From contig CAZWVK010000002.1 of assembly GCA_964636785.1 (NCBI GenBank), positions 3,347-67,346 on the forward strand: a stretch of DNA of 64,000 bases, written 5' to 3'. Origin of the DNA: an uncultured Pseudobdellovibrionaceae bacterium (GTDB taxonomy: Bacteria; Bdellovibrionota; Bdellovibrionia; Bdellovibrionales; UBA1609). Under the pieces are notes generated by a model. It searched no databases. It was given only the letters and a program-made list of their open reading frames with translations, and was not told the origin of the DNA. Position numbers and translations under genes: made by a program. Position 1 is the first letter of the stretch. Each line of letters opens with the position of its first letter. Positions 26,103 through 58,544 of this stretch are shown in pieces.

Positions 26103-26103
26103 C

Positions 26104-26179
26104 GGGTACCTGCTTCCTTTCTTGATATGCAGTGCGCATTTCATGCCGCGCCGCATATCAAGAAAGGAAGCAGGCACCT
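26104..26179. repeat. Long inverted repeat / hairpin: 22-bp perfect stem with a 22-nt loop
   Basis: 26109-26130 cctgcttcctttcttgatatgc is the exact reverse complement of 26153-26174. Flanking bases extend the stem imperfectly. Begins 2 nt after the xth stop. No T-tract on either side. Confidence 0.85.
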
Positions 26180-26399
26180 TCCAGACGTTGGTCTAGGGCT
26201 TTATTAGGGGCGAATTAAGGTTTTGTCAGAGAATGTAGCAATAGGTTTACTTCTCGAAAAATCTCCCTGGCCTTTAGTTTGTCTCTCGACATGCCGATAC
26301 GGTTCTTCAGTTCTTGAGTCTGCCTATAAAGCTTTGTGCGCGACGCGCCATCTGTAAGATGGTTTAAGATTTTTGCTTGCAAAATTTATAGGGGTGATG

Positions 26400-28012: not shown

Positions 28013-28151
28013 TTCCTTCTTACAAACTCCATTTTTTGAACCATTTCAGATACTTTGGTCAAAAAACAAAGCATTTCTTGATAATTGGTGAGCCTTGTAT
28101 AAATTGAGTGGGTTCGTTTTTAAATCCTTTTTTTGTGTGAAGGGAGCAGCG

Positions 28152-29804
28152 ATGCGAAATTCTCTTAAACTTTTAGTCTTAGTTCTGACGCTGGGTCTAG
28201 GCTCATCCATTCTGGCGGCCAAGCACCCTATGGTGATTGGAAATCCAGAGGCCCCTCGAGGTGGGACTTTTTATTCGAATTTGAACTCTGAACCAGAGTC
28301 GTTGAATCCCATCAACTCAACAGACCGTTATGCCTCAATAGTTCAGGCTTATGTTATGGATGGTCTTTTAACCTTGAATCCGGAAACCTATGAGCTTGAG
28401 CCGGGAATGGCTGAAAAATGGGAAGTTTCAAAAGATGGTATGACTTATACGTTCTTCATTCGAGATGGACTCCAGTTCTCAGATGGAAAACCAATCACAA
28501 TTGAGGACATCAAGTTTAGTTTTGAGAATGTTAAGGACCCAGCATACAAAGCAGCGCATAGGCTTCCTTATTACGAGAATATCAAATCGATTGAAATTGT
28601 TGATCCAAAAACGATCCGTTTTCATATGAACAAGAAGTACTTCAAGAATTTGGATGTTCTTGGAAGTGGTGGATTTTCTCCGATTGTTCCCAAGCATGTT
28701 TATGGCGATCCCAAAAAGATGGGCAGCAAGAATCTTGTAGGTTCTGGTCCTTACAAAGTTGAAAAGTACAACCGCGGGAAAAACATCACCCTGGTTCGTA
28801 ATGACAAATGGTGGGGGTATAAGGACGAACGATTCAAAGGAGCATTTAAATTCGATAAAATCTTCTATCGTTTTATCAAGGAAGAAAATCTTGAGCTTGA
28901 AATGGTCAAAAAGGGCAATCTCGATGTGATGACAACTACGCCTGAGGTTTTTGTTCAAAAAGCAGTCGGTGGGCCTTTTGGAAAGACAATTCTTAAACAT
29001 CAAATTGAGAACCAAGATCCTGGCACTAAAGGTTACAACTATGTTGGATGGAATTTTGAAAATCCGATGTTTCAGGATAAAAAAGTCCGCCATGCTCTTG
29101 TTCACCTGATGAATCGTAAGTTGATGAATGAGAAGTTTCGCTTCAATCTTTCTGATCTCGCAACAGGTCCAACTTATTATCGCAATGACTTCATTGCAGA
29201 TAAATCCATCAAGCCAATGGAGTTTGATCCGGCGAAAGCGGGAAAGCTCCTGAAGGAAGCGGGGTGGGCTGACAAAGATAAAAATGGAATTTTGGAAAAA
29301 ACAATTGATGGCAATAAGAAGGAATTTCGTTTCACACTTCTTCTCGCCAATCGAGACTCTGAAAAATACTACACCATGTACAAGGAAGACTTAAAAAAAG
29401 CTGGAATTCATATGGATATCAAAATCCTTGAGTGGAATGCTTTTTTGAAGCTTCTTGACGAAAAAAAATTCGAAGCGGTCACTTTGGGATGGTCCGTCGG
29501 AAGCTTAGAACAGGACTTAAAACAGATTTGGCATTCCGAGAGCGCGCAACCAGGTGGATCGAACTACATCAGTTATAAAAACCCTGAGGTTGATAAATTG
29601 ATCGATCAAGCGAGAGAAGAACTCGACAAAGATAAGCGTCGCAAGATGTGGCAAAAGGTTTATCGTTTAATTGCAGAAGATGCTCCATACGCGTTTATGT
29701 TCAGCACACGCTATGATCTATATTTGGTTAACAATCGAATTGGTATGATTGCTCCAACCTTAAAATATAGCCGCGGGCAAGATTATTGGTGGGTTACAAA
29801 GTAG
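28152..29804 (+). CDS. ABC peptide/opine-type substrate-binding protein (family 5, YejA/OppA-like)
   Basis: Signal peptide MRNSLKLLVLVLTLGLGSSILAA after ATG 28152 (GGGAG upstream). Length and composition fit SBP_bac_5. Followed by two permease genes. Confidence 0.88.
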   Translation: MRNSLKLLVLVLTLGLGSSILAAKHPMVIGNPEAPRGGTFYSNLNSEPESLNPINSTDRYASIVQAYVMDGLLTLNPETYELEPGMAEKWEVSKDGMTYTFFIRDGLQFSDGKPITIEDIKFSFENVKDPAYKAAHRLPYYENIKSIEIVDPKTIRFHMNKKYFKNLDVLGSGGFSPIVPKHVYGDPKKMGSKNLVGSGPYKVEKYNRGKNITLVRNDKWWGYKDERFKGAFKFDKIFYRFIKEENLELEMVKKGNLDVMTTTPEVFVQKAVGGPFGKTILKHQIENQDPGTKGYNYVGWNFENPMFQDKKVRHALVHLMNRKLMNEKFRFNLSDLATGPTYYRNDFIADKSIKPMEFDPAKAGKLLKEAGWADKDKNGILEKTIDGNKKEFRFTLLLANRDSEKYYTMYKEDLKKAGIHMDIKILEWNAFLKLLDEKKFEAVTLGWSVGSLEQDLKQIWHSESAQPGGSNYISYKNPEVDKLIDQAREELDKDKRRKMWQKVYRLIAEDAPYAFMFSTRYDLYLVNNRIGMIAPTLKYSRGQDYWWVTK

Positions 29805-29813
29805 AAATAATCT

Positions 29814-30842
29814 ATGCTTTGGAAATACTTTCTTAGACGACTTCTATTAATGATCCCGACACTGTTCGGGATCACAGTTATTTGCTTCATCGTGATTAAT
29901 CTTGCACCAGGAAGTCCTCTTGAGCAGAAGCTTGCTATGATCAAATTCGGATCTCAAGTTTCCGGTGGCGGAGCCGGAGGCGGTGGGGACTCGATGGTTT
30001 CTGAGCAGGTCATTGAAGCGCTGAAGGTTCAATATGGATTCGATAAGCCGCTTCATATGCGCTATCTGATCTGGCTTAAGAATATTTTAACTTTGGACTT
30101 TGGAGAAAGCTTCTCCTACGAGATGCCGGTTACTGAGCTTATCTTAGAAAAACTTCCGATCTCGCTTCAGTTCGGGCTAGCGTCTTTGATTTTGATTTAT
30201 ATAACCTGCATTCCACTAGGCATTGCAAAAGCAGTTCGAAATGGAACTCGATTTGATATGGCCTCGAGTGTTGTGCTAATGGTGCTCTATTCCATTCCAC
30301 CACTCACCTTAGGGATTCTACTTCGAATGTATTTTGCCGGAGGAGGGTTTTTAGATATTTTCCCTCTTGGAGAGGCTTATTCCGACAACTACTTTGAGTT
30401 AAGCACTTGGGGCAAGATGGTCGATCGCGCCCATCACTTTGTTCTTCCGCTGATTTGTTATGTCGTAAATAGCTTTACGGTTTTAACATTTCTGATGAAG
30501 AACTCTTTATTAGAAGAGGTTCGCCTGGATTATGTCCGTACGGCTCGTGCAAAAGGTTTAAACGAGCGAACCGTTATTTATAAACATGCATTAAGAAATG
30601 CATTGATTCCGATTTTAACAGGGCTTGGAAGCTTTCTAACTGTTTTCTTTGCGGGCTCTATTATTATTGAGCAAATGTTCAGCCTAGATGGCATGGGACT
30701 TCTTTCTTATAAATCGATTCTCGCTCGTGATTACAATGTGATTATGGCGTTGATATTTTTCCAGAGTGTTCTCGCCATGGTTGGGCGTTTGATTTCTGAT
30801 TTAACTTATGTGGCAGTGGATCCAAGGATAGATTTCCAATGA
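29814..30842 (+). CDS. ABC permease, YejB/OppB-like
   Basis: Multiple TM segments. EAA-like region VRTARAKGLNERTVIYKHALRNALIP. Gly-rich periplasmic insert GGGAGGGGD. Confidence 0.88.
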   Translation: MLWKYFLRRLLLMIPTLFGITVICFIVINLAPGSPLEQKLAMIKFGSQVSGGGAGGGGDSMVSEQVIEALKVQYGFDKPLHMRYLIWLKNILTLDFGESFSYEMPVTELILEKLPISLQFGLASLILIYITCIPLGIAKAVRNGTRFDMASSVVLMVLYSIPPLTLGILLRMYFAGGGFLDIFPLGEAYSDNYFELSTWGKMVDRAHHFVLPLICYVVNSFTVLTFLMKNSLLEEVRLDYVRTARAKGLNERTVIYKHALRNALIPILTGLGSFLTVFFAGSIIIEQMFSLDGMGLLSYKSILARDYNVIMALIFFQSVLAMVGRLISDLTYVAVDPRIDFQ

Positions 30843-31855
30843 TTGAACGTCGTATTAAGAATGATCTGACATTAAAGCGATATCGACGTTTCAAAAGCGT
30901 GAAGCGCGCAGTTTGGTCGACTTGGGTTTTTATATTTTTAATATTCTTAAGTATAACGGCTGAGTTTTGGGCAAATAATAAGCCGATCATTATGAGCCAT
31001 CAGGGCTCAATCTATTTTCCTGTTGTTAAGACCTATCATCCATCTGTTTTTAACCAGCCTGGCTTTGTAACCAACTATAGAGAACTAAGTGACGAAGATG
31101 GAGTTTGGGCCATTTGGCCTCCGGTGAGATGGAATCCATTGGAATCAAATCGAGAGCTCGAATCTTATCCAGCACCTCCATCCAATGTGAATCTTCTGGG
31201 AACGGATGATCGGGGACGGGATGTTTTATCCCGACTGATTTACGGCTTTAGGTACTCCATCGGATTTGCCGTCTTAGTTTGGTTTTTTTCTTATTTGGTT
31301 GGAATTGCTCTTGGTGGGAGCATGGGATTCTTTGGAGGAAAGATTGATCTTTTTGGCCAAAGGATTGTGGAAGTTTTCGACTCACTTCCTTACCTGCTCA
31401 TGCTTTTAACTCTGATTGCAATGCTTGGAGCCAGTCTTGAGCTATTGGTGCTCTTTTCGGTACTGCTTGGTTGGATGAGAATTTCTGCTTATATGAGAGC
31501 TGAATTTTTAAAATTGAGAAAACGGGATTTTGTGGATGCCGGGCGTGCACTTGGAGTGGGAACAGGTCGAATCCTAAGCCGACATATTCTTCCAAATGCC
31601 ATGGGTCCCATTATTACCTTTTCACCGATTGAGATTGCGGGTGGGATTTATACGCTAGCGATTCTTGATTACCTAGGTCTTGGGCTTCCGCCACCAACTC
31701 CGAGTTGGGGTGAGCTTCTTCAACAAGCGCAAAACTACTTCTCCATTGCATGGTGGCTTGGGGTTTTCCCATCCATTGCGATTATTATTTCGCTAACTTC
31801 ACTGACGTTCATTGGTGAAGGTGTGCGAGAGGCGTTTGATCCGCGCAAAACATAG
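30839..31855 (+). CDS. ABC permease, YejE/OppC-like
   Basis: LGTDDRGRDVLSRLIYG motif typical of OppC/DppC-type permeases. ATGA overlap with the upstream permease gene. Confidence 0.88.
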   Translation: MIERRIKNDLTLKRYRRFKSVKRAVWSTWVFIFLIFLSITAEFWANNKPIIMSHQGSIYFPVVKTYHPSVFNQPGFVTNYRELSDEDGVWAIWPPVRWNPLESNRELESYPAPPSNVNLLGTDDRGRDVLSRLIYGFRYSIGFAVLVWFFSYLVGIALGGSMGFFGGKIDLFGQRIVEVFDSLPYLLMLLTLIAMLGASLELLVLFSVLLGWMRISAYMRAEFLKLRKRDFVDAGRALGVGTGRILSRHILPNAMGPIITFSPIEIAGGIYTLAILDYLGLGLPPPTPSWGELLQQAQNYFSIAWWLGVFPSIAIIISLTSLTFIGEGVREAFDPRKT

Positions 31856-31890
31856 CGCATCTCCTACGATAGATTAGTTTTTTCTTATTC

Positions 31891-31965
31891 AGCACCACGG
31901 ACTCCTTTCATCGCCAGCATCTCGCTTTCAGCGAGAGCGCATCCTGCTTGCTGGAGGGTGCCTCT
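31891..31965 (+). repeat. Copy A of a roughly 70-nt GC-rich structured element (nested hairpin)
   Basis: ccagca (31914-31919) pairs with tgctgg (31949-31954). The inner stem tctcgc/gcgaga (31920-31936) has loop tttca. About 75-80% identical by eye to the reverse complement of 32125-32200. Confidence 0.7.
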
Positions 31966-32106
31966 AAAGAAAAATAAAATTTTGTAATCGATGCTTCCCG
32001 CTGGGGGGAGCGGGTGTTTCAGAAGGAGGGAAGTGAAAATGCGAATGAACTTCTTTCGCTGGAGCCAGCTTGGTGAAGAGGGAATGGAGATAAAGACAAA
32101 CTTAAA

Positions 32107-32228
32107 TCCTTATCGGATGTGAACTCATTAAATGCACCTCCAGCAAGCGTGAAGCGTTCTCGCCTGAGGCGAGATGCTGGCGAGGGCAGGAGCCCGTGTG
32201 CATTTAAAGAGTTCACATCCGATAAGGA
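32107..32228 (-). repeat. Copy B of the same element, inverted, embedded in 31-bp inverted-repeat arms (MITE/REP-like long hairpin)
   Basis: 32107-32137 tccttatcggatgtgaactcattaaatgcac pairs with 32198-32228 (30 of 31 positions). Inner core: ccagca/tgctgg (32140-45 and 32175-80) and tctcgcc-tga-ggcgaga (32158-32174). Confidence 0.75.
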
Positions 32229-32239
32229 AGTATCTGCCT

Positions 32240-34903
32240 TTAATTCCTTTTATTCTGTGTGCTCAGGGCTTTGCTTAGGATTTTCTGACATCTTTGGCCT
32301 TCTTCTTGGTCCTTGATGATTCGTTTTGCAAGTGAAGTGTCCATCATCTCTTGATTGGATTTTAAAAAACGACTCGACTGCGCAAGGCTTTGCGAAGAGC
32401 AAAGAGAGGGTCTTAAGCTGTAGAAGACTTGCTTTTCCGTCTCCTTCTTGTTTTTCAGAACTTCTTTAAAATCATTATAGAATTTTTCAGAGTACCTGGA
32501 TCGCAGTTCCTCTTGAGCCTTTGGAAATAGTCCGCCGAGTTCTGCCCAAAGCTCGTGAAGACTTTGATCTCCAGAACTCTGTTTGAAGCGCTCAATGGTT
32601 TTTAGCTTGTCCGGATATTCGAGAAGCATACTTTGAGACGAGACTGAAGAAAGTTTGCCGTTATAAGACGGATCGCTTTTGAGTTCAGCTTCGATGAGTT
32701 TATCAACCTCCGGAAAGCGGTGTGCGGCGAGTTGGCGAATCAAACTCCATCGTTTGTCTTGGTCAATTTTTAGCCCTTTGAAACGGATCTGGTTGGTAAG
32801 AATTTTAGCAACTCTCGCTAAGTTTTTTTCATTTCTCGCCAAGCGGACGTACGTATCAAACAAGCTCTTTTGAAACTCTGTTCCGGCGCGAGCCTTGCTT
32901 AAAATATCAAATACGACGGTTTGAAGTCGATTCATAAGTGTTTTCGTTTCAGAGAGATCCTTCAGAGCCGGCTTCTCAAAATAATCGAGTAAATCTCCGC
33001 CGCCACGTCGACTAACAATGATTCCTAGGAGATCTTCAAAAATCATTTCATTTCTTTCGCCAAGAAGGCCTTTTTCGATCAGCACATCCGTAAATGAAAA
33101 CAGATCTCTTTCACCATCGCGCACCTGATCCCAAAGTGCGTACCACACCATCTGTCTTAGCAGATCGTTTTTGACTCTGTTTACGTTCTGAATAAAGAAC
33201 TCGTTGGATACCCGATCCAATTTAATTTTGATGTACGCATGATCGCCGAAGTTCGGGTGAACTGCCTTTGGACATGGAATGTCTTGGATCTGAACTGAAG
33301 TTTCAGCACCAGTCATTAGAACATCCTGATTGTAACGAACAACGGCCTGACTTCCAGAATTATAGACAAATCCGACATTGAGGCGGTGAGATCTTAATGT
33401 TGGGTGTTCTTTTGGTGCGCTTTGTATCAGCTGTAAGCTTGAGAGTTTTCCGCTTTCGCACTTCCACTTCGCTTCAACGAGATTAAGGCCTGCAGTCTCA
33501 AGCCATTCCTTTTTCCAGAAGCTTAGGTCTGTTCCAGAAGCTTTAGAGAGTGATTGAATGAAATCATCAAGCCTTGTGTTTTTTTCCGCATAGGTTTGAA
33601 AATACTCTTTTAGGCCGTTTTGAAAATCTGTATTGCCAAGAAGATAATGAAGCTGCTTTAAAACAGCGGCTCCTTTGGCATAGGTGATTCCGTCAAAATT
33701 TGCTTTGGCCTGATCGGTATCATGGACCTCAGCAAGAATTGGGTGGGTTGTAGACATTTGATCTTCCCAGTATCCCCATCCCTTTGTTCCTAGAAAATCC
33801 TGCCAGGCCGTGGATTTGAATCTTGGATTTTGAGACAGAGCAACAGACGCCATATATGTTGCGAAGCTTTCATTGAGCCATAAATCATCCCACCACTTCA
33901 TTGTCACCAGATTTCCAAACCACATATGTGCCATTTCATGAAGAATCACATTGGCCTGATTTCTTAAAAGCTCTTCTGAATACTCACCACGAGAAATAAA
34001 TCTCTCTGTGAAAGTTACCGCTGCGACATTTTCCATGGCGCCCGAATTGAACTCAGGTGCGATCACCTGGTCATATTTTAAATAGGGATATGTGTATCCA
34101 AAATAGCTATTGAAGAATTTGAATCCAGCTTCAGTGGCACTAAACCAATCATTTGGGCGAACATACTGCGCAAGAGTCTGTCTTGCAAAAAGGCGAAGCG
34201 GAATTTTTCCTTTCCGCTCCCACTTCTTATATGGTCCGGCATGGAGGGAAATCAAATAGGTGCTGAACTTCTGACTCTCTGGAAAGCTCCACAGGACTTT
34301 TTCGTTTTCAGTGGGTGTTTTTTTATTTTCCCTTACAGATGTGATCACTTCCCAGTCCTTTGGAGCGATAACATTCATGGTGTAAGTGGCTTTGATATCT
34401 GGTTGATCAAAGGATGGAAACATTCGGCTTGCATAATAAGTTTCGAACTGAGTGTGAAGATAAGTTCTTTGATCTTCAGGGTCTGTAAAGCGATGAAGTC
34501 CTTTTCCATCATTTGCATATTTACGTTCATATTTTATCTGGATTTCGTTTCTACCAGATTGCAATTGGTTTTGAGGGATCGTTATAAAATGGCCATTGTA
34601 ATTGAGGGGTGTGGCTTGCCCGTTGGTTTTGATCTCAAAGAGGGTCGCATGCTGAAGATCAATTCTTAAATCCTGACTTGCATCCTTTAAATCAAAAAAT
34701 ATCTTTGTTGTTCCATCAAAGGTTTCTTTTTCCGATCCAATTTCTAAATCAATCGTGTACTGGACATTTTCAATTCGGGAGGCTCGAGATTTGGCTTCAT
34801 TCCAGGATAGGCTAGGTTCAAGGGGAAGCTCATTTTTCTTGGATAAATGAGAGCAGCTCGTTGAGATGAAGAAAAAAGTGAGTAGCAGAATCAAGTTTCT
34901 CAC
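32240..34903 (-). CDS. pepN: Aminopeptidase N (M1 family), probable lipoprotein
   Basis: GAMEN exopeptidase motif and HEMAHMWFGNLVTMKWWDDLWLNESFA zinc motif. GTG 34903 is preceded by GAGGAGG and gives the signal RNLILLLTFFFISTSC. Track start is TTG 34933. Confidence 0.9.
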   Translation of the reverse strand: MRNLILLLTFFFISTSCSHLSKKNELPLEPSLSWNEAKSRASRIENVQYTIDLEIGSEKETFDGTTKIFFDLKDASQDLRIDLQHATLFEIKTNGQATPLNYNGHFITIPQNQLQSGRNEIQIKYERKYANDGKGLHRFTDPEDQRTYLHTQFETYYASRMFPSFDQPDIKATYTMNVIAPKDWEVITSVRENKKTPTENEKVLWSFPESQKFSTYLISLHAGPYKKWERKGKIPLRLFARQTLAQYVRPNDWFSATEAGFKFFNSYFGYTYPYLKYDQVIAPEFNSGAMENVAAVTFTERFISRGEYSEELLRNQANVILHEMAHMWFGNLVTMKWWDDLWLNESFATYMASVALSQNPRFKSTAWQDFLGTKGWGYWEDQMSTTHPILAEVHDTDQAKANFDGITYAKGAAVLKQLHYLLGNTDFQNGLKEYFQTYAEKNTRLDDFIQSLSKASGTDLSFWKKEWLETAGLNLVEAKWKCESGKLSSLQLIQSAPKEHPTLRSHRLNVGFVYNSGSQAVVRYNQDVLMTGAETSVQIQDIPCPKAVHPNFGDHAYIKIKLDRVSNEFFIQNVNRVKNDLLRQMVWYALWDQVRDGERDLFSFTDVLIEKGLLGERNEMIFEDLLGIIVSRRGGGDLLDYFEKPALKDLSETKTLMNRLQTVVFDILSKARAGTEFQKSLFDTYVRLARNEKNLARVAKILTNQIRFKGLKIDQDKRWSLIRQLAAHRFPEVDKLIEAELKSDPSYNGKLSSVSSQSMLLEYPDKLKTIERFKQSSGDQSLHELWAELGGLFPKAQEELRSRYSEKFYNDFKEVLKNKKETEKQVFYSLRPSLCSSQSLAQSSRFLKSNQEMMDTSLAKRIIKDQEEGQRCQKILSKALSTQNKRN

Positions 34904-35036
34904 GAAGGGACCTCCTCGAATGAATTGAAGCAATCTATGAAATTTCTTTACAAAAGAACAGAGCAGGCATGTGTTTTGAACATAACGTCATAATATGAGC
35001 AAAGCGCAAAATGAACGATGGTTAGAAGGAGGACTC

Positions 35037-52470: not shown

Positions 52471-54198
52471 CTAAAGCCGCTCAAGCACTGTTTTTGGCAT
52501 TCCCTTCGGGATCGCACTCAATAACTTCTTAGTATAGTCATGTTGAGGGTTTTCATAAATCCCAACCGCATCGTTCATTTCAACGACTTTACCGTTGTAC
52601 ATCACAGCAACCTCATCAGAGATAAACTTCACAACAGCCAAGTCATGAGAAATGAAAATATAAGTTAAATTGAGTTGCTCTTGAAGATCCAGCAGGAGGT
52701 TTAAAATCTGCGCTTGAATGGAAACATCCAGTGCCGAAACTGATTCATCGCAAATAATGAACTCTGGCTCAACGGCAAGAGCTCTTGCAATACAGATCCT
52801 TTGGCGTTGTCCTCCAGAAAACTCATGCGGATATCTATTGAGCATAGAGGGCTCAAGTCCCACTCGCTTCATAAGACTTGCGGCCATATCTAGTCGTTCG
52901 GATTTGGAAGAGCCTAAGTTATGAATCACCATAGGCTCCATCAGTGCGGCACCAATGGTCATTCGAGGATTGAGAGAGGCATATGGATCTTGAAAGATGA
53001 TCTGCATCTTTCTTCGCATTGCTCTCATATCGCTTTTATTGAGCTGAGTGACATCTGTTCCATTGTAGTTGATGGAACCAGCTGTTGGCTCAATCAAACG
53101 AAGGACAGTACGACCTAAAGTGGTTTTTCCACATCCGGATTCACCCACAAGTCCCAATGTTCTTCCTTTACGAACGGACAAAGACACATCATCGACCGCC
53201 TTCACCCAATTCTGTACTCCGCCGAAAAATCCCTTCTTGAGAGGGAAGTGCTTTTTTAGGTTTTTGATTTCCAAAAGGGGAGTCTGATGGCTTTTAACTT
53301 CTCTAGTTTCCTTTGCCGCCTTAATGACAGCTTGGTCCGGTGTGCGCTCTTTTCCATCCGGAGTCATGAAATCACTGACCACGGGAAGTCGTTTAGGGTG
53401 CTCATCCAGATTCGGACGACATGCTAAAAGACCTTTGGTGTAAGGATGTTTTGGATTCAAAAAGAGCTTCTCAGTGTCTTCCTTTTCAACAATGTCCCCG
53501 CGATACATCACGACGACTTCATCAGAGATGTCTGCGATCACACCGAGATCGTGAGTGATAAAGAGGACACTCATTCCATATTGCTTTTGAAGGTCAGCTA
53601 TCAAATCCAAGATTTGCTTTTGAATTGTGACGTCCAGAGCCGTTGTTGGCTCGTCGGCAATAAGAAGGTCCGGATTACAAGAGATAGCCATTGCAATCAT
53701 CACACGCTGACGCTGACCACCACTCATTTCATGAGGGTAACTTTTGATTCGCGAATGAGGATCAGGAATTCCAACTTGCTCAAGAAGCTCGATGGCGCGC
53801 TTCCAAGCCTGCTGTTTGGTCATTCCCTCGTGAAGAATCAAACTCTCGCAAATCTGATCTCCAACCGTGAAAACAGGATTCAAGCTTGTCATAGGCTCCT
53901 GGAAAATCATGGAGATTCTTTTTCCACGGATTTTTCTCATGGCGGGCTCAGAGAATTTTAAAAGATCTTTTCCTTCAAAAAGGATTTCACCAGAAGTCAC
54001 TTTTCCCGGTGGGTTTGGAATGAGTCCCATAATGGCCAAAGAGCTGACACTTTTTCCAGAACCGGATTCACCAACGAGACCAACTGTTTTTCCTTTTGGG
54101 ATGTCGAACGAGATATTTTTAACTGCTTTGACAGTGCCCTCGTCAGTTTGAAACTCTACGGAGAGATTTCGAATTTGAATTAAAGAGTCTGCTCCCAT
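52471..54198 (-). CDS. Fused double-ATPase ABC protein (YejF/GsiA/Opp D-F fusion type)
   Basis: Two Walker A motifs ([16 protein letters not shown]). Two signature motifs ([16 protein letters not shown]). Two Walker B motifs ([16 protein letters not shown]). Confidence 0.92.
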
Positions 54199-54207
54199 TC
54201 ATCTACC

Positions 54208-55080
54208 TCACTTGTCTCTTAACTTGGGATCCAAAGCGTCTCGTAATGCATCATTAAACAACGTAAAAGCCAAAACCAAGAAGAACATAAAAAGCGTGGC
54301 GGCGGCAAGTCCCCACCAGACCTCTCGCGCCAATTCAAGGCGGGCATCGCTGATCATCATCCCCCAGGAAGGCACTCCAGGCTCAACGCCAAGCCCCAAG
54401 TAACTTAAAATCACTTCGGCCTTAATCGCAGAAACAAAACCAAGCGAAAAATTAATAAGGATCAAGTGACTGGTATTTGGGAGGATGTGAGTAAAGATTC
54501 GTCTCGCGTGACTGGCTCCCATCGCAAATGCGCCCTGAACATACTCCTGTCCACGCTGTTTGATAAATTCGGATCGAACAAGGCGGCAGTGACCGACCCA
54601 GGAAGTCAGTCCAATTGCCAAACAGAGAGTTTTGAGTCCAGGCCCGGAAACAAAGGAGAATGCAACAAGTAAAAGAATATAGGGGATATTATCGAGTGTG
54701 GAGTAAAACCAGGTGATCAATTCGTCCACGAGCCCACCAAAATACCCAGCGATCGCGCCAAGCAGTGTCCCAATTAAAATTGAAATTCCAGCAGCAGAAA
54801 AGCCAACAATGAGCGAGGTCACAGTTCCATGGGAGGCTCGCGCCAAAACATCTCGACCAAAGATATCTGTTCCAAACCAGTGCTCAGAGCTGGGTGGTTG
54901 AAATGAAATGGAGTTATTCACTTCATTGTAACTTGTAAAGATCAGATCCATGGCACATAGAGCGGCAAGACCCAAGTAAAAAGCAATGATCCAAAAGCTA
55001 ATCACTGCAATCTTATTGCGTTTGATTTTACGAACGGCATCGGCCCATAGGCTTCGACCTTGAGAGGATGCTTTTGTCAT
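54208..55080 (-). CDS. ABC peptide permease (OppC/DppC-like)
   Basis: WFGTDIFGRDVLAR motif. Six predicted TM segments. Confidence 0.9.
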   Translation of the reverse strand: MTKASSQGRSLWADAVRKIKRNKIAVISFWIIAFYLGLAALCAMDLIFTSYNEVNNSISFQPPSSEHWFGTDIFGRDVLARASHGTVTSLIVGFSAAGISILIGTLLGAIAGYFGGLVDELITWFYSTLDNIPYILLLVAFSFVSGPGLKTLCLAIGLTSWVGHCRLVRSEFIKQRGQEYVQGAFAMGASHARRIFTHILPNTSHLILINFSLGFVSAIKAEVILSYLGLGVEPGVPSWGMMISDARLELAREVWWGLAAATLFMFFLVLAFTLFNDALRDALDPKLRDK

Positions 55081-56012
55081 TCCAACCTCACCTTTGGATC
55101 TACCACGGCATAGAGAAGATCCGAGATCAGGTTAAATGTCGTATAAAGAATAGTTAGAATCACAATCATGGCTTTAATCACTGGAAAGTCGGCATTATTG
55201 ATCGCATTCACCAGCAACCCGCCAAGTCCTGGGATCCCAAAGAAAGATTCAATAAGAAGAGATCCAAGAATTAAAAAGGGAATCTGTAAAACCACCAGAG
55301 TGATAATTGGAATCAAAGCATTTCGAAGAACGTGTTTGATTAAAATTTTAAAACGAGAAATTCCTTTGGATCTTGCAGTACGCACATAGTCCTTGCTCAT
55401 CTCTTCAATAAAAATGGTGCGGAAAAGGAGAATGTATGTGCCCAAAGATAAAGAGATAAAAATAAAAATTGGCAAAATTGCATACTCCCACCGTCCGACA
55501 AAACTGGAGTCCCATCCACTGATTGGAAAAAGGTTCCATTTGTATGCAAGGAAGTATTGGCCAGCAAGGATATAAACCAAAGAGGAAACACTGATCAGAG
55601 CCAAACAGGTTACCATAGCGGTTTTATCAATTAACGAGTCGCGTTTGTAACCTAAGAAGAGTGACAAGGGGATGGTGATCAATAGTGAAATCAAAAACGC
55701 AGGCAAAGTCACTGTTAAGCTTGGACCGATTCCGGAAACAAACATCTCAGAGATTTGCTGTCTGGTTGACCATGAACGTCCGAAATCGAAAGTGATGATC
55801 TGTCTTAAGTAATCGAGATACTGAAAAACGAGAGGTTTATTTAATCCAAGTTCAGCACGAATGGCTTCGATCTGCTCAGCGGTGGCATACTTTCCAGCAG
55901 CCTGGGCGGCTGGATCGCCACCAGCCACATTGAAGAGTAAGAAGCAGATCAAGGTGACCCCAAAGAGAATTGGGATCATGTAGAGAATTCTTCGGAGGGA
56001 ATATTTGAGCAT
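55077..56012 (-). CDS. ABC peptide permease (OppB/DppB-like)
   Basis: MLKYSLRRILYMIPILFGVT N-terminus and YVRTARSKGISRFKILIKHVLRNALIP EAA region. Confidence 0.9.
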   Translation of the reverse strand: MLKYSLRRILYMIPILFGVTLICFLLFNVAGGDPAAQAAGKYATAEQIEAIRAELGLNKPLVFQYLDYLRQIITFDFGRSWSTRQQISEMFVSGIGPSLTVTLPAFLISLLITIPLSLFLGYKRDSLIDKTAMVTCLALISVSSLVYILAGQYFLAYKWNLFPISGWDSSFVGRWEYAILPIFIFISLSLGTYILLFRTIFIEEMSKDYVRTARSKGISRFKILIKHVLRNALIPIITLVVLQIPFLILGSLLIESFFGIPGLGGLLVNAINNADFPVIKAMIVILTILYTTFNLISDLLYAVVDPKVRLE

Positions 56013-57808
56013 TAGAGATTTTCTCTCAATTTCGCCTTTTGTTCCAAATCGATTCTTAAATACTTAGTATCGCCATTCAAAATAGCATGTGTTTTAAAAT
56101 TCTTCAGCCAGCCATGATAGGGGACGTAACCCTTTCGATGAATGCTCGTGATCCAAGGAAGCTCCTCAACAAAAATCTTCTTCATCTCTGTATAGAGCTT
56201 GGTTCTCTCAGGACCAGGTGGGAGCCTTAGGGCTTTTTCATAAAGTTCATCAAATTTCTTATTTTTGAAATTGGATCCGTTCGGACCAGGACTTTCATTT
56301 GGACCATAAAGAAGTTGAAGAAAGTTCTCCGCATCCGGATAGTCGGCCGACCACGCAATACCCCACATCTGAGCTCTTTTATCACGAATCTTATCTGTGA
56401 ATTGCGGCCAAGATGTTGCGCTGATCTTTAAATTGATTCCAATAGCAGCAAGATTTTGTTGAACATACTCGGCCATTTGACGTGCAGTTGTGGAGTTGGT
56501 TGTCGAGTATTCGATTGTTGGAAGACCCTTACCACCTGGGTATCCTGCTTTTTCCAAATAGGATTTTGCAGCATCCAGATCGAATTTTTTGTAAGGATTT
56601 ACAAAGTCTTTTGAGTAGCCATCAATGCCTGGTGGAATTAGGCTATGAGCGGTAATTCCGCGACCGTTATAGAATTTTTCTAAAAGAGTGTCGGTATCCA
56701 TCGCATGTGAAATGGCTTTACGCAAATTTAAATTTTTACCGAGGACGGGATCCAGCATATTGAATGCTGTGTAGGTGACGTCTGGCTCCTCACTGATATT
56801 GAGCTTCATTCCTTTTTTAGTAAACTCTTCGGCCAAAGCGTCGCCTTTTACAGAGGAATCAAAGTTATCTTTAGGGATTCCAGTAAAATCCAGATCACCT
56901 CTTAAGAAATTTAGCCAACGAGGTTGGTCTTCAATGATTTCATGAAAAACCACCTTATCAACAAACGGCAGATCTTTTCCGGCGTCTTCAAGAAGACCAT
57001 TCTCTTCGTCACCAGCTTCACCTTCGGTTGGATATTTTCCGCCATGCCATGCTGGATTCTTAACAAGAACGACTTTGCTGTTTCTGGTCCAGGACTCGAG
57101 CTTATAAGGGCCTGTTCCGACGGGATGGTTAAGGAATTCCTTGTCATACTTTTCGACAGCTTCTCTCGCCACTGGAGCTGAGTAAGGCATCGCTAAAACA
57201 TAATGAAGTTGGAAATAGGGTCCGGTTAGCTTCACGACCAGTGTTTCATCATCGGGAGCTTGAAGACCTTCAACTGGAGTGTCGTAATCCACTTCGCCTT
57301 TTCCGACTTTCTCTCTCCATTCATTAAGACCTTTGATCTTTCCATCAAAGATCCAAAAGCCATCGCTGGCGTTTCTTGGATCAGCAAGGCGCTTCCAAGC
57401 ATAAATAAAATCCGCTGCTTTTAATTCGCGACCTTTTCCTTCTGGAAAGGCCTCGTCATCATGAAAGCGAACTCCCTTTTTAATTTTAAAGGTGTGAGTC
57501 AGTCCATCTTTGGAAACCGTCGGCATCTCTCGCGCCAGCAAAGGCTCAAGTTCTAAAGGGCGCTTTAAATAATGATATTGAAGAAGTGTTTCATACATAT
57601 TTGAAATCACTTGGTTGCTGTAAAGATCAGAAGCAAAAATCGGGTCCATACCTTTAAGATTTGCTGTGAGAGCGCGATTGAGGGAGTTCTCATTTCCAGA
57701 AGATTTTTTTGTGCATCCAGAAAGTCCAATAACAGCAAACAAAGCTGCAAAGAGAAGTGAGAAAAGAGCACGGTTTTTCGATACTTGGGTTGAAGCAGCA
57801 ATATTCAT
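56012..57808 (-). CDS. ABC peptide substrate-binding lipoprotein (family 5)
   Basis: ATG 57808 preceded by GGAGG. Lipobox FAVIGLSGC. Operon with two permeases and the fused ATPase. Track start is 57877. Confidence 0.88.
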   Translation of the reverse strand: MNIAASTQVSKNRALFSLLFAALFAVIGLSGCTKKSSGNENSLNRALTANLKGMDPIFASDLYSNQVISNMYETLLQYHYLKRPLELEPLLAREMPTVSKDGLTHTFKIKKGVRFHDDEAFPEGKGRELKAADFIYAWKRLADPRNASDGFWIFDGKIKGLNEWREKVGKGEVDYDTPVEGLQAPDDETLVVKLTGPYFQLHYVLAMPYSAPVAREAVEKYDKEFLNHPVGTGPYKLESWTRNSKVVLVKNPAWHGGKYPTEGEAGDEENGLLEDAGKDLPFVDKVVFHEIIEDQPRWLNFLRGDLDFTGIPKDNFDSSVKGDALAEEFTKKGMKLNISEEPDVTYTAFNMLDPVLGKNLNLRKAISHAMDTDTLLEKFYNGRGITAHSLIPPGIDGYSKDFVNPYKKFDLDAAKSYLEKAGYPGGKGLPTIEYSTTNSTTARQMAEYVQQNLAAIGINLKISATSWPQFTDKIRDKRAQMWGIAWSADYPDAENFLQLLYGPNESPGPNGSNFKNKKFDELYEKALRLPPGPERTKLYTEMKKIFVEELPWITSIHRKGYVPYHGWLKNFKTHAILNGDTKYLRIDLEQKAKLRENL

Positions 57809-57869
57809 GAAGGTCCTCCAAAAGATAGAATGTTGTGTAGCGTTAAGGGCGGGGGCTGTCAATGATTGC

Positions 57870-58544
57870 TCACTCAAGGCCGCTTCGCAAAACAGTTAAT
57901 AAATCCTTAAAATCATCAATATGGTTATGCGCTCCTAAGGCTAATAATTGCTGAATTGGCGTGTAGCCAAAGCTAACAGCAATAGAGAAGCTACCAGCCG
58001 CATGTGCGCCCTCAATATCGGGTGTTCCATCTCCCACAATAACGGCCTCGGATGGATGTACTTGCGCAGCATCTATGGCCAAAAGCAGCGGCGCTTTATC
58101 GGGCTTCATCGTCGGAAGAGTGTCACCTCCGATAATTTTCACCCATGGCAGCTGATCCAATTGCAATTTTTTTAAGATGGGATGAATGAGATCTTCTCGC
58201 TTATTGGAAACAATGGCGATTTTGTACTCACCTTGAACACTTTGAGAAAATAAAAAATCTTTCGCACCTGGAAATAATTGAGGCGAGTTCAAAAAAACAG
58301 AGCGATATATTTCAAGAAACTCGTTTGTCAGTTGGAGTTCTTTCTCAAGGCTCTCACGAGCCTCTGGAAAAAAATCGAATAAAAGATTTTTAAGGCCGGT
58401 GCCAATGTCCTGTCGAATCACTTCAGGAGCAAGGGGTGGGTGACCATATTTGAGCAACAACTGATTGGTCGCTAAAACGAGATCGGAAGCGGTGTCGACA
58501 AGAGTGCCGTCAAAATCGAACATCACGAGCTTAATTTTGTTCAC
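57870..58544 (-). CDS. HAD-family phosphatase (phosphoglycolate-phosphatase-like)
   Basis: HAD motif I VMFDFDGTLVDT, motif II IVSNK, motif IV VGDGTPDIEGA. Confidence 0.8.
   Translation of the reverse strand: MNKIKLVMFDFDGTLVDTASDLVLATNQLLLKYGHPPLAPEVIRQDIGTGLKNLLFDFFPEARESLEKELQLTNEFLEIYRSVFLNSPQLFPGAKDFLFSQSVQGEYKIAIVSNKREDLIHPILKKLQLDQLPWVKIIGGDTLPTMKPDKAPLLLAIDAAQVHPSEAVIVGDGTPDIEGAHAAGSFSIAVSFGYTPIQQLLALGAHNHIDDFKDLLTVLRSGLE

Follow-up and report, generated by a model that had tools for sequence, protein, structure and literature searches.

Among short bacterial repeats, REP-type elements are biased toward the junctions of convergent genes, often occur there as inverted pairs, and vary in presence between relatives (PMC3184786). 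REPs in 3′ UTRs can be partial terminators and can stabilise mRNA, and one REP of E. coli does both (bioRxiv 10.64898/2026.03.23.713779). MITEs are built from terminal inverted repeats that bound a short non-coding core, while Correia/NEMIS, ERIC, RUP and SPRITE elements are intergenic, lie near gene 3′ ends, in some cases carry terminator-like motifs, and leave empty sites in relatives (PMC3184786). The locus described here, a 384-nt spacer between the convergent genes oppC and pepN in a 64-kb window (the whole stretch of DNA that was analysed), holds two homologous hairpin-forming sequences in inverted orientation, denoted copies A and B. Tentatively, we take both to descend from one small palindromic MITE/REP-like insertion, to have diverged since, and to form the 3′-UTR hairpins of both convergent mRNAs today, a reading that may well be right but of which we are less than confident.

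The resemblance to the described systems is partial in every case. Like REP, BIME and REPIN sequences, A and B are G+C-rich imperfect palindromes arranged as an inverted pair in intergenic DNA between convergent genes. Unlike REPs, which are simple hairpins of ~20–40 nt with a GT(A/G)G head, they are 68–70 nt long, contain three stems and begin GCAC(C)ACGG, and no GTAG or GTGG head is visible in the sequence at their ends. REPs also number tens to hundreds of copies per genome and are linked to RAYTs, whereas here two copies are seen, at one locus in 64 kb, and no RAYT is encoded by the window ORFs scanned. REPINs have conserved arms around a variable spacer; here it is the core that is common to A and B, and the arms are unique to B. 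The stem-loop MITEs (Correia/NEMIS, ERIC, RUP, pneumococcal SPRITE) come closer, being likewise non-coding, 100–150 nt long and folded into a very stable hairpin. The units at this locus, of 122 and 70 nt, indeed fall below the ~400 bp usual for such elements, include a long stem-loop, and are accompanied by spacer ORFs that lack Pfam matches and encode no transposase. Unlike those MITEs, they show no shared terminal inverted repeat, no identified parent insertion sequence, no demonstrated multi-copy family and no target-site duplication, as direct repeats at seven candidate boundaries never exceed 3 nt when 3 nt of slack is allowed. As to inverted repeats, those flanking B are 97% complementary but missing from A; alternatively, the inverted ends could be A and B, each contributing 62 nt (81%) to a 310-bp unit. 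Membership of the REP, SPRITE or stem-loop MITE families is therefore not established, as the locus lacks both the target-site duplication and the REP head.

Several other classes were considered. The locus does not match an inverton, as the repeats are only 81% identical, the spacer has no promoter-like site and the window ORFs scanned have no recombinase domain. attC sites, retrons, CRISPR and DGRs were discarded for absence of the required partner genes or repeat geometry, and a replication origin or terminus because GC skew tracks gene strand only.

The junction and its flanking genes

Domain matches confirm the identification, made in an earlier note on this DNA from the sequence alone, of the flanking genes as a plus-strand permease gene and minus-strand pepN (Table 1). 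The top NCBIfam match of the permease product is a microcin C/oligopeptide permease, so that peptide import on one side of the spacer faces an aminopeptidase on the other, two functionally related activities. Translation of pepN probably starts at a GTG at 34903, upstream of which lies an AGGAGG Shine–Dalgarno sequence. The 887-aa product has a single 100% identical protein at NCBI, a next match of 58%, and beyond that matches of ~43% from metagenome-assembled genomes of Bdellovibrionota, Bacteriovoracia and Oligoflexia. This profile marks the host as a sparsely sampled member of the Bdellovibrionota/Bacteriovoracia/Oligoflexia group.

Table 1. Features of the oppC–pepN junction, in window coordinates
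Feature	Positions	Strand	Description
oppC/yejE-like ABC transporter permease gene	30839–31855	+	Pfam BPD_transp_1 and OppC_N; TAG stop; last gene of an SBP-permease-permease operon
Spacer	31856–32239		384 nt, lineage-specific; may reach ~32262, into the final 8 pepN codons
Copy A with weak outer A/T stem	31879–31974	+	TTTTTCTT (31879–31886) paired with AAGAAAAA (31967–31974); fold of 31866–31992, z = −2.0
Copy A core	31892–31961	+	70 nt; nested stems GCACC/GGTGC, CCAGCA/TGCTGG, TCTCGCT/AGCGAGA; covariance model 104 bits
Small GC hairpin	31997–32014	+	CCCGCT-GGGGGG-AGCGGG followed by TGTTTC; weak, terminator-like, downstream of A
Candidate small ORF	32024–32122	+	AGGAGG at 32024–32029, 9 nt, ATG at 32039; 27 codons (MRMNFFRWSQLGEEGMEIKTNLNPYRM); TGA inside the left arm of B
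U-rich tail	32090–32106	−	TTTAAGTTTGTCTTTAT; directly 3′ of the 122-nt B hairpin in the pepN-sense strand; read from sequence
Extended B hairpin	32107–32228	−	122 nt; 31-bp arms 32107–32137/32198–32228 with one mismatch, around copy B
Copy B core	32134–32201	−	68 nt; three stems as in A; covariance model 98.7 bits
pepN (aminopeptidase N)	32240–34933	−	TIGR02412, 724 bits

For so compact a genome, 384 nt of non-coding DNA between convergent genes is exceptional: elsewhere in the window, convergent neighbours overlap at six junctions, are separated by gaps of 11 nt or less at two, and by 277 nt at one. A domain scan of ~50 window ORFs matched housekeeping genes wherever it matched at all, and found no transposase, RAYT (Y1_Tnp) or recombinase domain among them. 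An ATPase gene is missing both from the SBP-permease-permease operon beside the element (28095–31855, plus strand) and from its counterpart in the relative L033 described below; a second opp-like operon in the window (52471–57877, minus strand) encodes a fused double ATPase of 575 aa.

Two homologous copies in inverted orientation

Aligned core to core, A and B are 80% identical, with 14 differences. A repeat search returned them as an inverted repeat of 62 nt (31896–31957/32137–32198), 81% complementary with 179 nt in between, and a blastn comparison of copy A with the whole window recovered B at E = 1.6e-12 and everything else at E of 0.6 or above. Each strand of the window has exactly one occurrence of the 15-mer TCGCCAGCATCTCGC. 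The two inverted, homologous, hairpin-forming copies described in the earlier note are thereby borne out. Its limits for them, 31891–31965 and 32125–32200, needed correction to those of the cores in Table 1. Outside the cores, similarity between A and B, including that between the flanks of A and the arms of B, is not significant (p = 0.67, 0.81). The description of the region as much more GC-rich than its surroundings proved overstated, as the 100-nt windows of the spacer range from 0.45 to 0.54 against a whole-window mean of 0.435; the cores themselves reach 57%.

Each copy is, as had been noted, sense to its nearest gene. This orientation is no evidence of function, because an inverted pair placed between convergent genes must be either both sense or both antisense, a 50:50 outcome.

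Hairpins and maintained pairing

The arms that flank copy B are 97% complementary, though the A and B cores have diverged by 20%. Folded as a whole, the 122-nt B hairpin reaches −75.9 kcal/mol, compared with −33.5 on average for shuffles (z = −10.9), in agreement with the earlier picture of B as lying within 31-bp arms in an extended hairpin that resembles a MITE or REP-type element. The cores folded alone do little better than shuffles (z = −0.9, −1.9), and the evidence for their structure accordingly comes from how the differences between A and B are distributed rather than from folding energy.

The centroid structure predicted from A alone comprises 18 pairs (1–5/66–70, 23–28/58–63 and 29–35/39–45). 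None of these is broken in B. Ten of the 14 differences fall at unpaired positions, and the other four make up two compensated events: a loop-closing T-A (U-A) pair that becomes C-G, and an outer-stem C that is absent from B together with its partner G. When 14 differences were placed at random, zero half-hit pairs resulted in 0.024% of trials (P = 2.4e-4). An RNAalifold consensus likewise has 16 of 17 pairs invariant and one compensatory, and the loops are the least conserved parts of the cores. Compensatory change between the copies, which the earlier note had named as a check on its proposal, is thus present, as one pair exchange and one paired indel. Base pairing is preserved through 20% divergence, by selection or by palindrome-templated correction. 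Since every pair in A and B is Watson–Crick, with zero G-U, the pairing fits RNA and DNA equally, and likewise either strand.

Gain of the spacer

L033, the closest of the syntenic relatives, is a 35-kb sediment-metagenome contig fully syntenic with the window, in the order ahpC, xth, dksA, arginase-like, SBP, oppB, oppC, pepN, hypothetical, GT4, deoxyhypusine synthase, arginine decarboxylase and leuS. In L033, oppC and pepN overlap by 4 nt (CTAG), and the same overlap is found in L029, which is the same organism. In a third relative, L038, a different convergent gene follows oppC after 6 nt and there is no spacer. These relatives thus show the empty site that is one mark of MITEs, and the 4-nt overlap and the 6-nt gap identify the spacer as a gain in the window's lineage. 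Compared with L033, the window's PepN carries ~8 extra C-terminal residues (LSTQNKRN; 32240–32266, minus strand), from which it follows that the present pepN stop codon probably lies within acquired DNA. As for independent assemblies of the spacer, an exact-sequence look-up of the pepN and oppC products found none on record, and the same-species Logan contigs stop inside oppC.

The window's only other large intergenic region is also occupied by a hairpin. Situated 2 nt past the xth stop, this 74-nt, near-perfect structure (26105–26178) has 32-bp arms (91%), a 10-nt loop and a z of about −10 to −12. L033 lacks the ~84-nt stretch that contains it (26103–26186), whereas two independent assemblies of the same species (L036, L037) carry that stretch unchanged. 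The similarity of this hairpin to the B hairpin is not significant, and its sequence is unrelated to A and B. Taken with the spacer, it indicates that, over 18 kb of conserved synteny, this lineage has acquired hairpin DNA just past a stop codon on at least two occasions.

The non-coding DNA that follows, between xth and dksA (~26187–26330), shares the conserved blocks GACGTTGGTCTAGG, TTAAGGTTTTGTCAGAGAAT and GCCGATACGG with L033 (3172–3310). Conservation of these blocks exceeds that of much of the coding DNA against the distant relative, and Rfam has no match to them at the gathering threshold. They could represent an sRNA or a leader that lacks annotation, or else a short ORF on the minus strand (55 aa, with a weak HTH-like match at E = 0.1).

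Putative transcript ends and termination

Both copies resemble intrinsic bidirectional terminators in lying directly past stop codons, in the stability of the hairpin and, on the pepN strand, in the U-rich tail that follows B. They differ from the usual 5–15-bp stem with a short loop in that B is 122 nt long with a branched apex and A has no adjacent U-tract. On the pepN strand the B hairpin runs into TTTAAGTT, with five T in the first 8 nt, while A runs into CTCTAAAGAAAAA. The earlier statement that neither copy is followed by a U-tract therefore stands for A and is not fully accurate for B once the full 122-nt hairpin is considered. A terminator scan called none in the spacer; the apex of B exceeds its loop limit. 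Canonical hairpin-plus-T motifs are no commoner in the window than in shuffled sequence, so a weak U-tract after B is not disqualifying, and termination in this host presumably relies on something besides canonical intrinsic terminators. From ~31995 to 32105 the plus strand is purine-rich, with a GC skew of +0.45 to +0.53, giving the pepN-sense strand a C-rich, G-poor stretch of ~110 nt after B, which is the composition expected of a Rho loading or utilisation region and could act as one. Downstream of A, the small GC hairpin of Table 1 folds no better than shuffles, and the terminator scan is silent there as well.

On the insertion reading, the element would have entered a junction at which oppC and pepN at first had adjoining or overlapping stop codons, and would have been duplicated there in inverted orientation. 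We infer that the element was mobile and that each copy today belongs to the transcribed 3′ untranslated end of one convergent mRNA, where the hairpins would probably stop or slow RNA polymerase and block 3′-to-5′ exonucleases. Together with its U-rich tail, the 122-nt B hairpin may constitute the terminator and stabiliser of pepN, followed by the C-rich, G-poor stretch onto which Rho could load; the hairpin of A may play the matching role for the opp operon.

Search for further copies

The covariance model (R1), run with filters off, and blastn found no third copy in the 64-kb window, nor did the model find one in ten related loci. Of two patterns run against the JGI metagenomes, one gave 0 matches and the other 3, all chance matches in GC-rich coding DNA; core and arm patterns gave 0 matches each in viral contigs, and blastn in distant mode returned no match in plasmids and phages. 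At the protein level, an HMMER search with a 65-aa ORF across B against 1.84 billion representatives yielded low-complexity matches only, a word-indexed search with the antisense 65-aa ORF gave nothing, and none of eight spacer ORFs has an exact counterpart in the protein collection. These searches do not bear out the repeat family proposed in the earlier note.

Searches for known RNAs were equally negative. Rfam 15 has 0 matches at the gathering threshold across the window, and at permissive settings its best match (E = 1) is a plant miRNA model that fits any long hairpin, so the suggested Rfam check yields nothing credible. No tRNA or tmRNA was found, and a scan for sigma-70-like promoters in the spacer found none. 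With neither a promoter-like site in the spacer nor an Rfam match, the idea of an sRNA precursor, also raised earlier, finds no support. A Pfam scan and the protein look-up gave no coding signal in the spacer. The candidate 27-codon ORF is absent from the protein collection by exact match, and Pfam matches nothing in the longer 43-aa form around it. AGGAGG occurs at 16 sites in the window, three of which mark real gene starts.

Origin and possible function

The insertion reading draws together the homology and hairpins of A and B, the gain of the spacer in a compact genome, the second gained hairpin at 26105–26178, the maintained pairing, the near-perfect arms of B around cores that are only 80% identical, the U-rich tail and the excess of C over G that follows it, the lack of coding signal, and a match to the known behaviour of REPs, the pneumococcal SPRITE repeat and stem-loop MITEs (PMC3184786; bioRxiv 10.64898/2026.03.23.713779). 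Against it stand the two copies, the only ones known, which lie in a single spacer with none elsewhere in the 64 kb or the collections searched, and the lack of both a target-site duplication longer than 3 nt and a transposase, RAYT or recombinase among the ~50 ORFs scanned. A further difficulty is that the core is shared and the 31-bp arms are not, whereas a TIR-defined MITE or a REPIN should show the reverse. The cores alone, moreover, are no more stable than shuffles, and their Watson–Crick pairs fit a DNA palindrome equally. Several of these points feed its main rival, a local by-product of mutation, in which the gained DNA underwent an inverted duplication from A to B, the palindromes were then extended and kept perfect by intrastrand template switching (quasipalindrome correction), and the outcome is neutral or mildly selfish with no selected RNA function. 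Two adjacent and inverted copies, without target-site duplication and without a transposase among the scanned ORFs, are what such a local origin would leave. The confinement of the arms to B, and their 97% complementarity against 80% between the cores, fits a recent templated extension, and a single event of templated correction is expected to yield compensated changes and exclusively Watson–Crick pairs. Near-perfect arms around an older imperfect core, with paired changes, are indeed the signature of quasipalindromes formed by template switching, and the unrelated near-perfect palindrome at 26105–26178 was gained as well. Template switching, however, perfects and lengthens hairpins; it leaves unexplained both the two 80%-identical copies and the source of ~400 nt of new DNA (384 nt in the spacer), given that convergent genes elsewhere in this genome overlap. 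Between A and B, the interior retains no residual dyad symmetry (overall self-complementarity is 62%, arms included), and both hairpins sit just past stop codons, where a function is plausible. On balance we regard a purely local origin as unlikely, albeit a serious contender. A third reading makes A and B the terminal inverted repeats of one element of ~310 bp (31892–32201), either an invertible segment or a passenger-bearing MITE, that carries the 27-codon ORF or an sRNA. The 62-nt inverted repeat does bracket 179 nt, the length falls within the MITE size range (PMC3184786), and the ATG of the ORF is preceded at optimal spacing by a strong Shine–Dalgarno sequence of a type that marks real starts at 3 of 16 sites in the window. 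Yet 81% identity is low for recombination or for ends recognised by a transposase, no target-site duplication is present, and the model does not explain why the right 31-bp arm falls outside the element and the left one inside. Given also a spacer devoid of promoter-like sites, the absence of a nearby recombinase, and an ORF found neither in the protein collection nor, in its 43-aa form, by Pfam, this arrangement appears improbable.

Two proposals grant the hairpins a selected function as RNA. One sees in them a new class of cis-regulatory RNA, such as a 3′-UTR module that binds a ligand or protein and co-regulates the peptide-uptake operon and the peptidase gene. Pairing kept with compensated changes while the loops diverge, the related functions of peptide import and aminopeptidase, and the sense orientation of both copies speak in its favour. 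Against this, the orientation is a 50:50 geometric outcome, the loops, in which ligand or protein recognition would be expected, are the least conserved parts, and no homologue is found in Rfam, the JGI metagenomes or viral contigs. The closest relatives, furthermore, possess the same two genes without the element, which is therefore not needed for their regulation in those organisms. We consider this proposal very improbable. The other, itself a long shot, holds that the 70-nt three-stem fold is a selected, previously undescribed 3′-UTR RNA module, installed in mirror image so that importer and aminopeptidase transcripts share an end structure; transcripts reading through from either side would form a 62-bp duplex between A and anti-B that marks them for RNase III. 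If true, the module would insulate convergent genes by itself, in a genome where such genes are otherwise allowed to overlap. That the pair might reflect chance similarity or an assembly artefact can scarcely be credited. The source is a metagenome-assembled contig and the same-species Logan contigs end inside oppC, which leaves room for such a suspicion, but the match between A and B within the window (E = 1.6e-12) is far from chance, copies produced by an assembler would be identical rather than 80% so, and the other hairpin of the same contig is exactly reproduced in two independent assemblies.

Implications

The pair is real, structured and lineage-specific, and most probably belongs to an ordinary kind of bacterial intergenic palindromic element rather than to a new type of system. 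The host, a Bdellovibrionota-like bacterium of a poorly sampled lineage, has a very compact genome, and the junction provides a clean contrast of before and after: two genes that overlap in relatives are separated here by 384 nt and two structure-preserving hairpins. While it opens no long-standing question, this contrast would serve as a neat natural experiment on whether insertions of this kind provide termination, insulation or mRNA stability.
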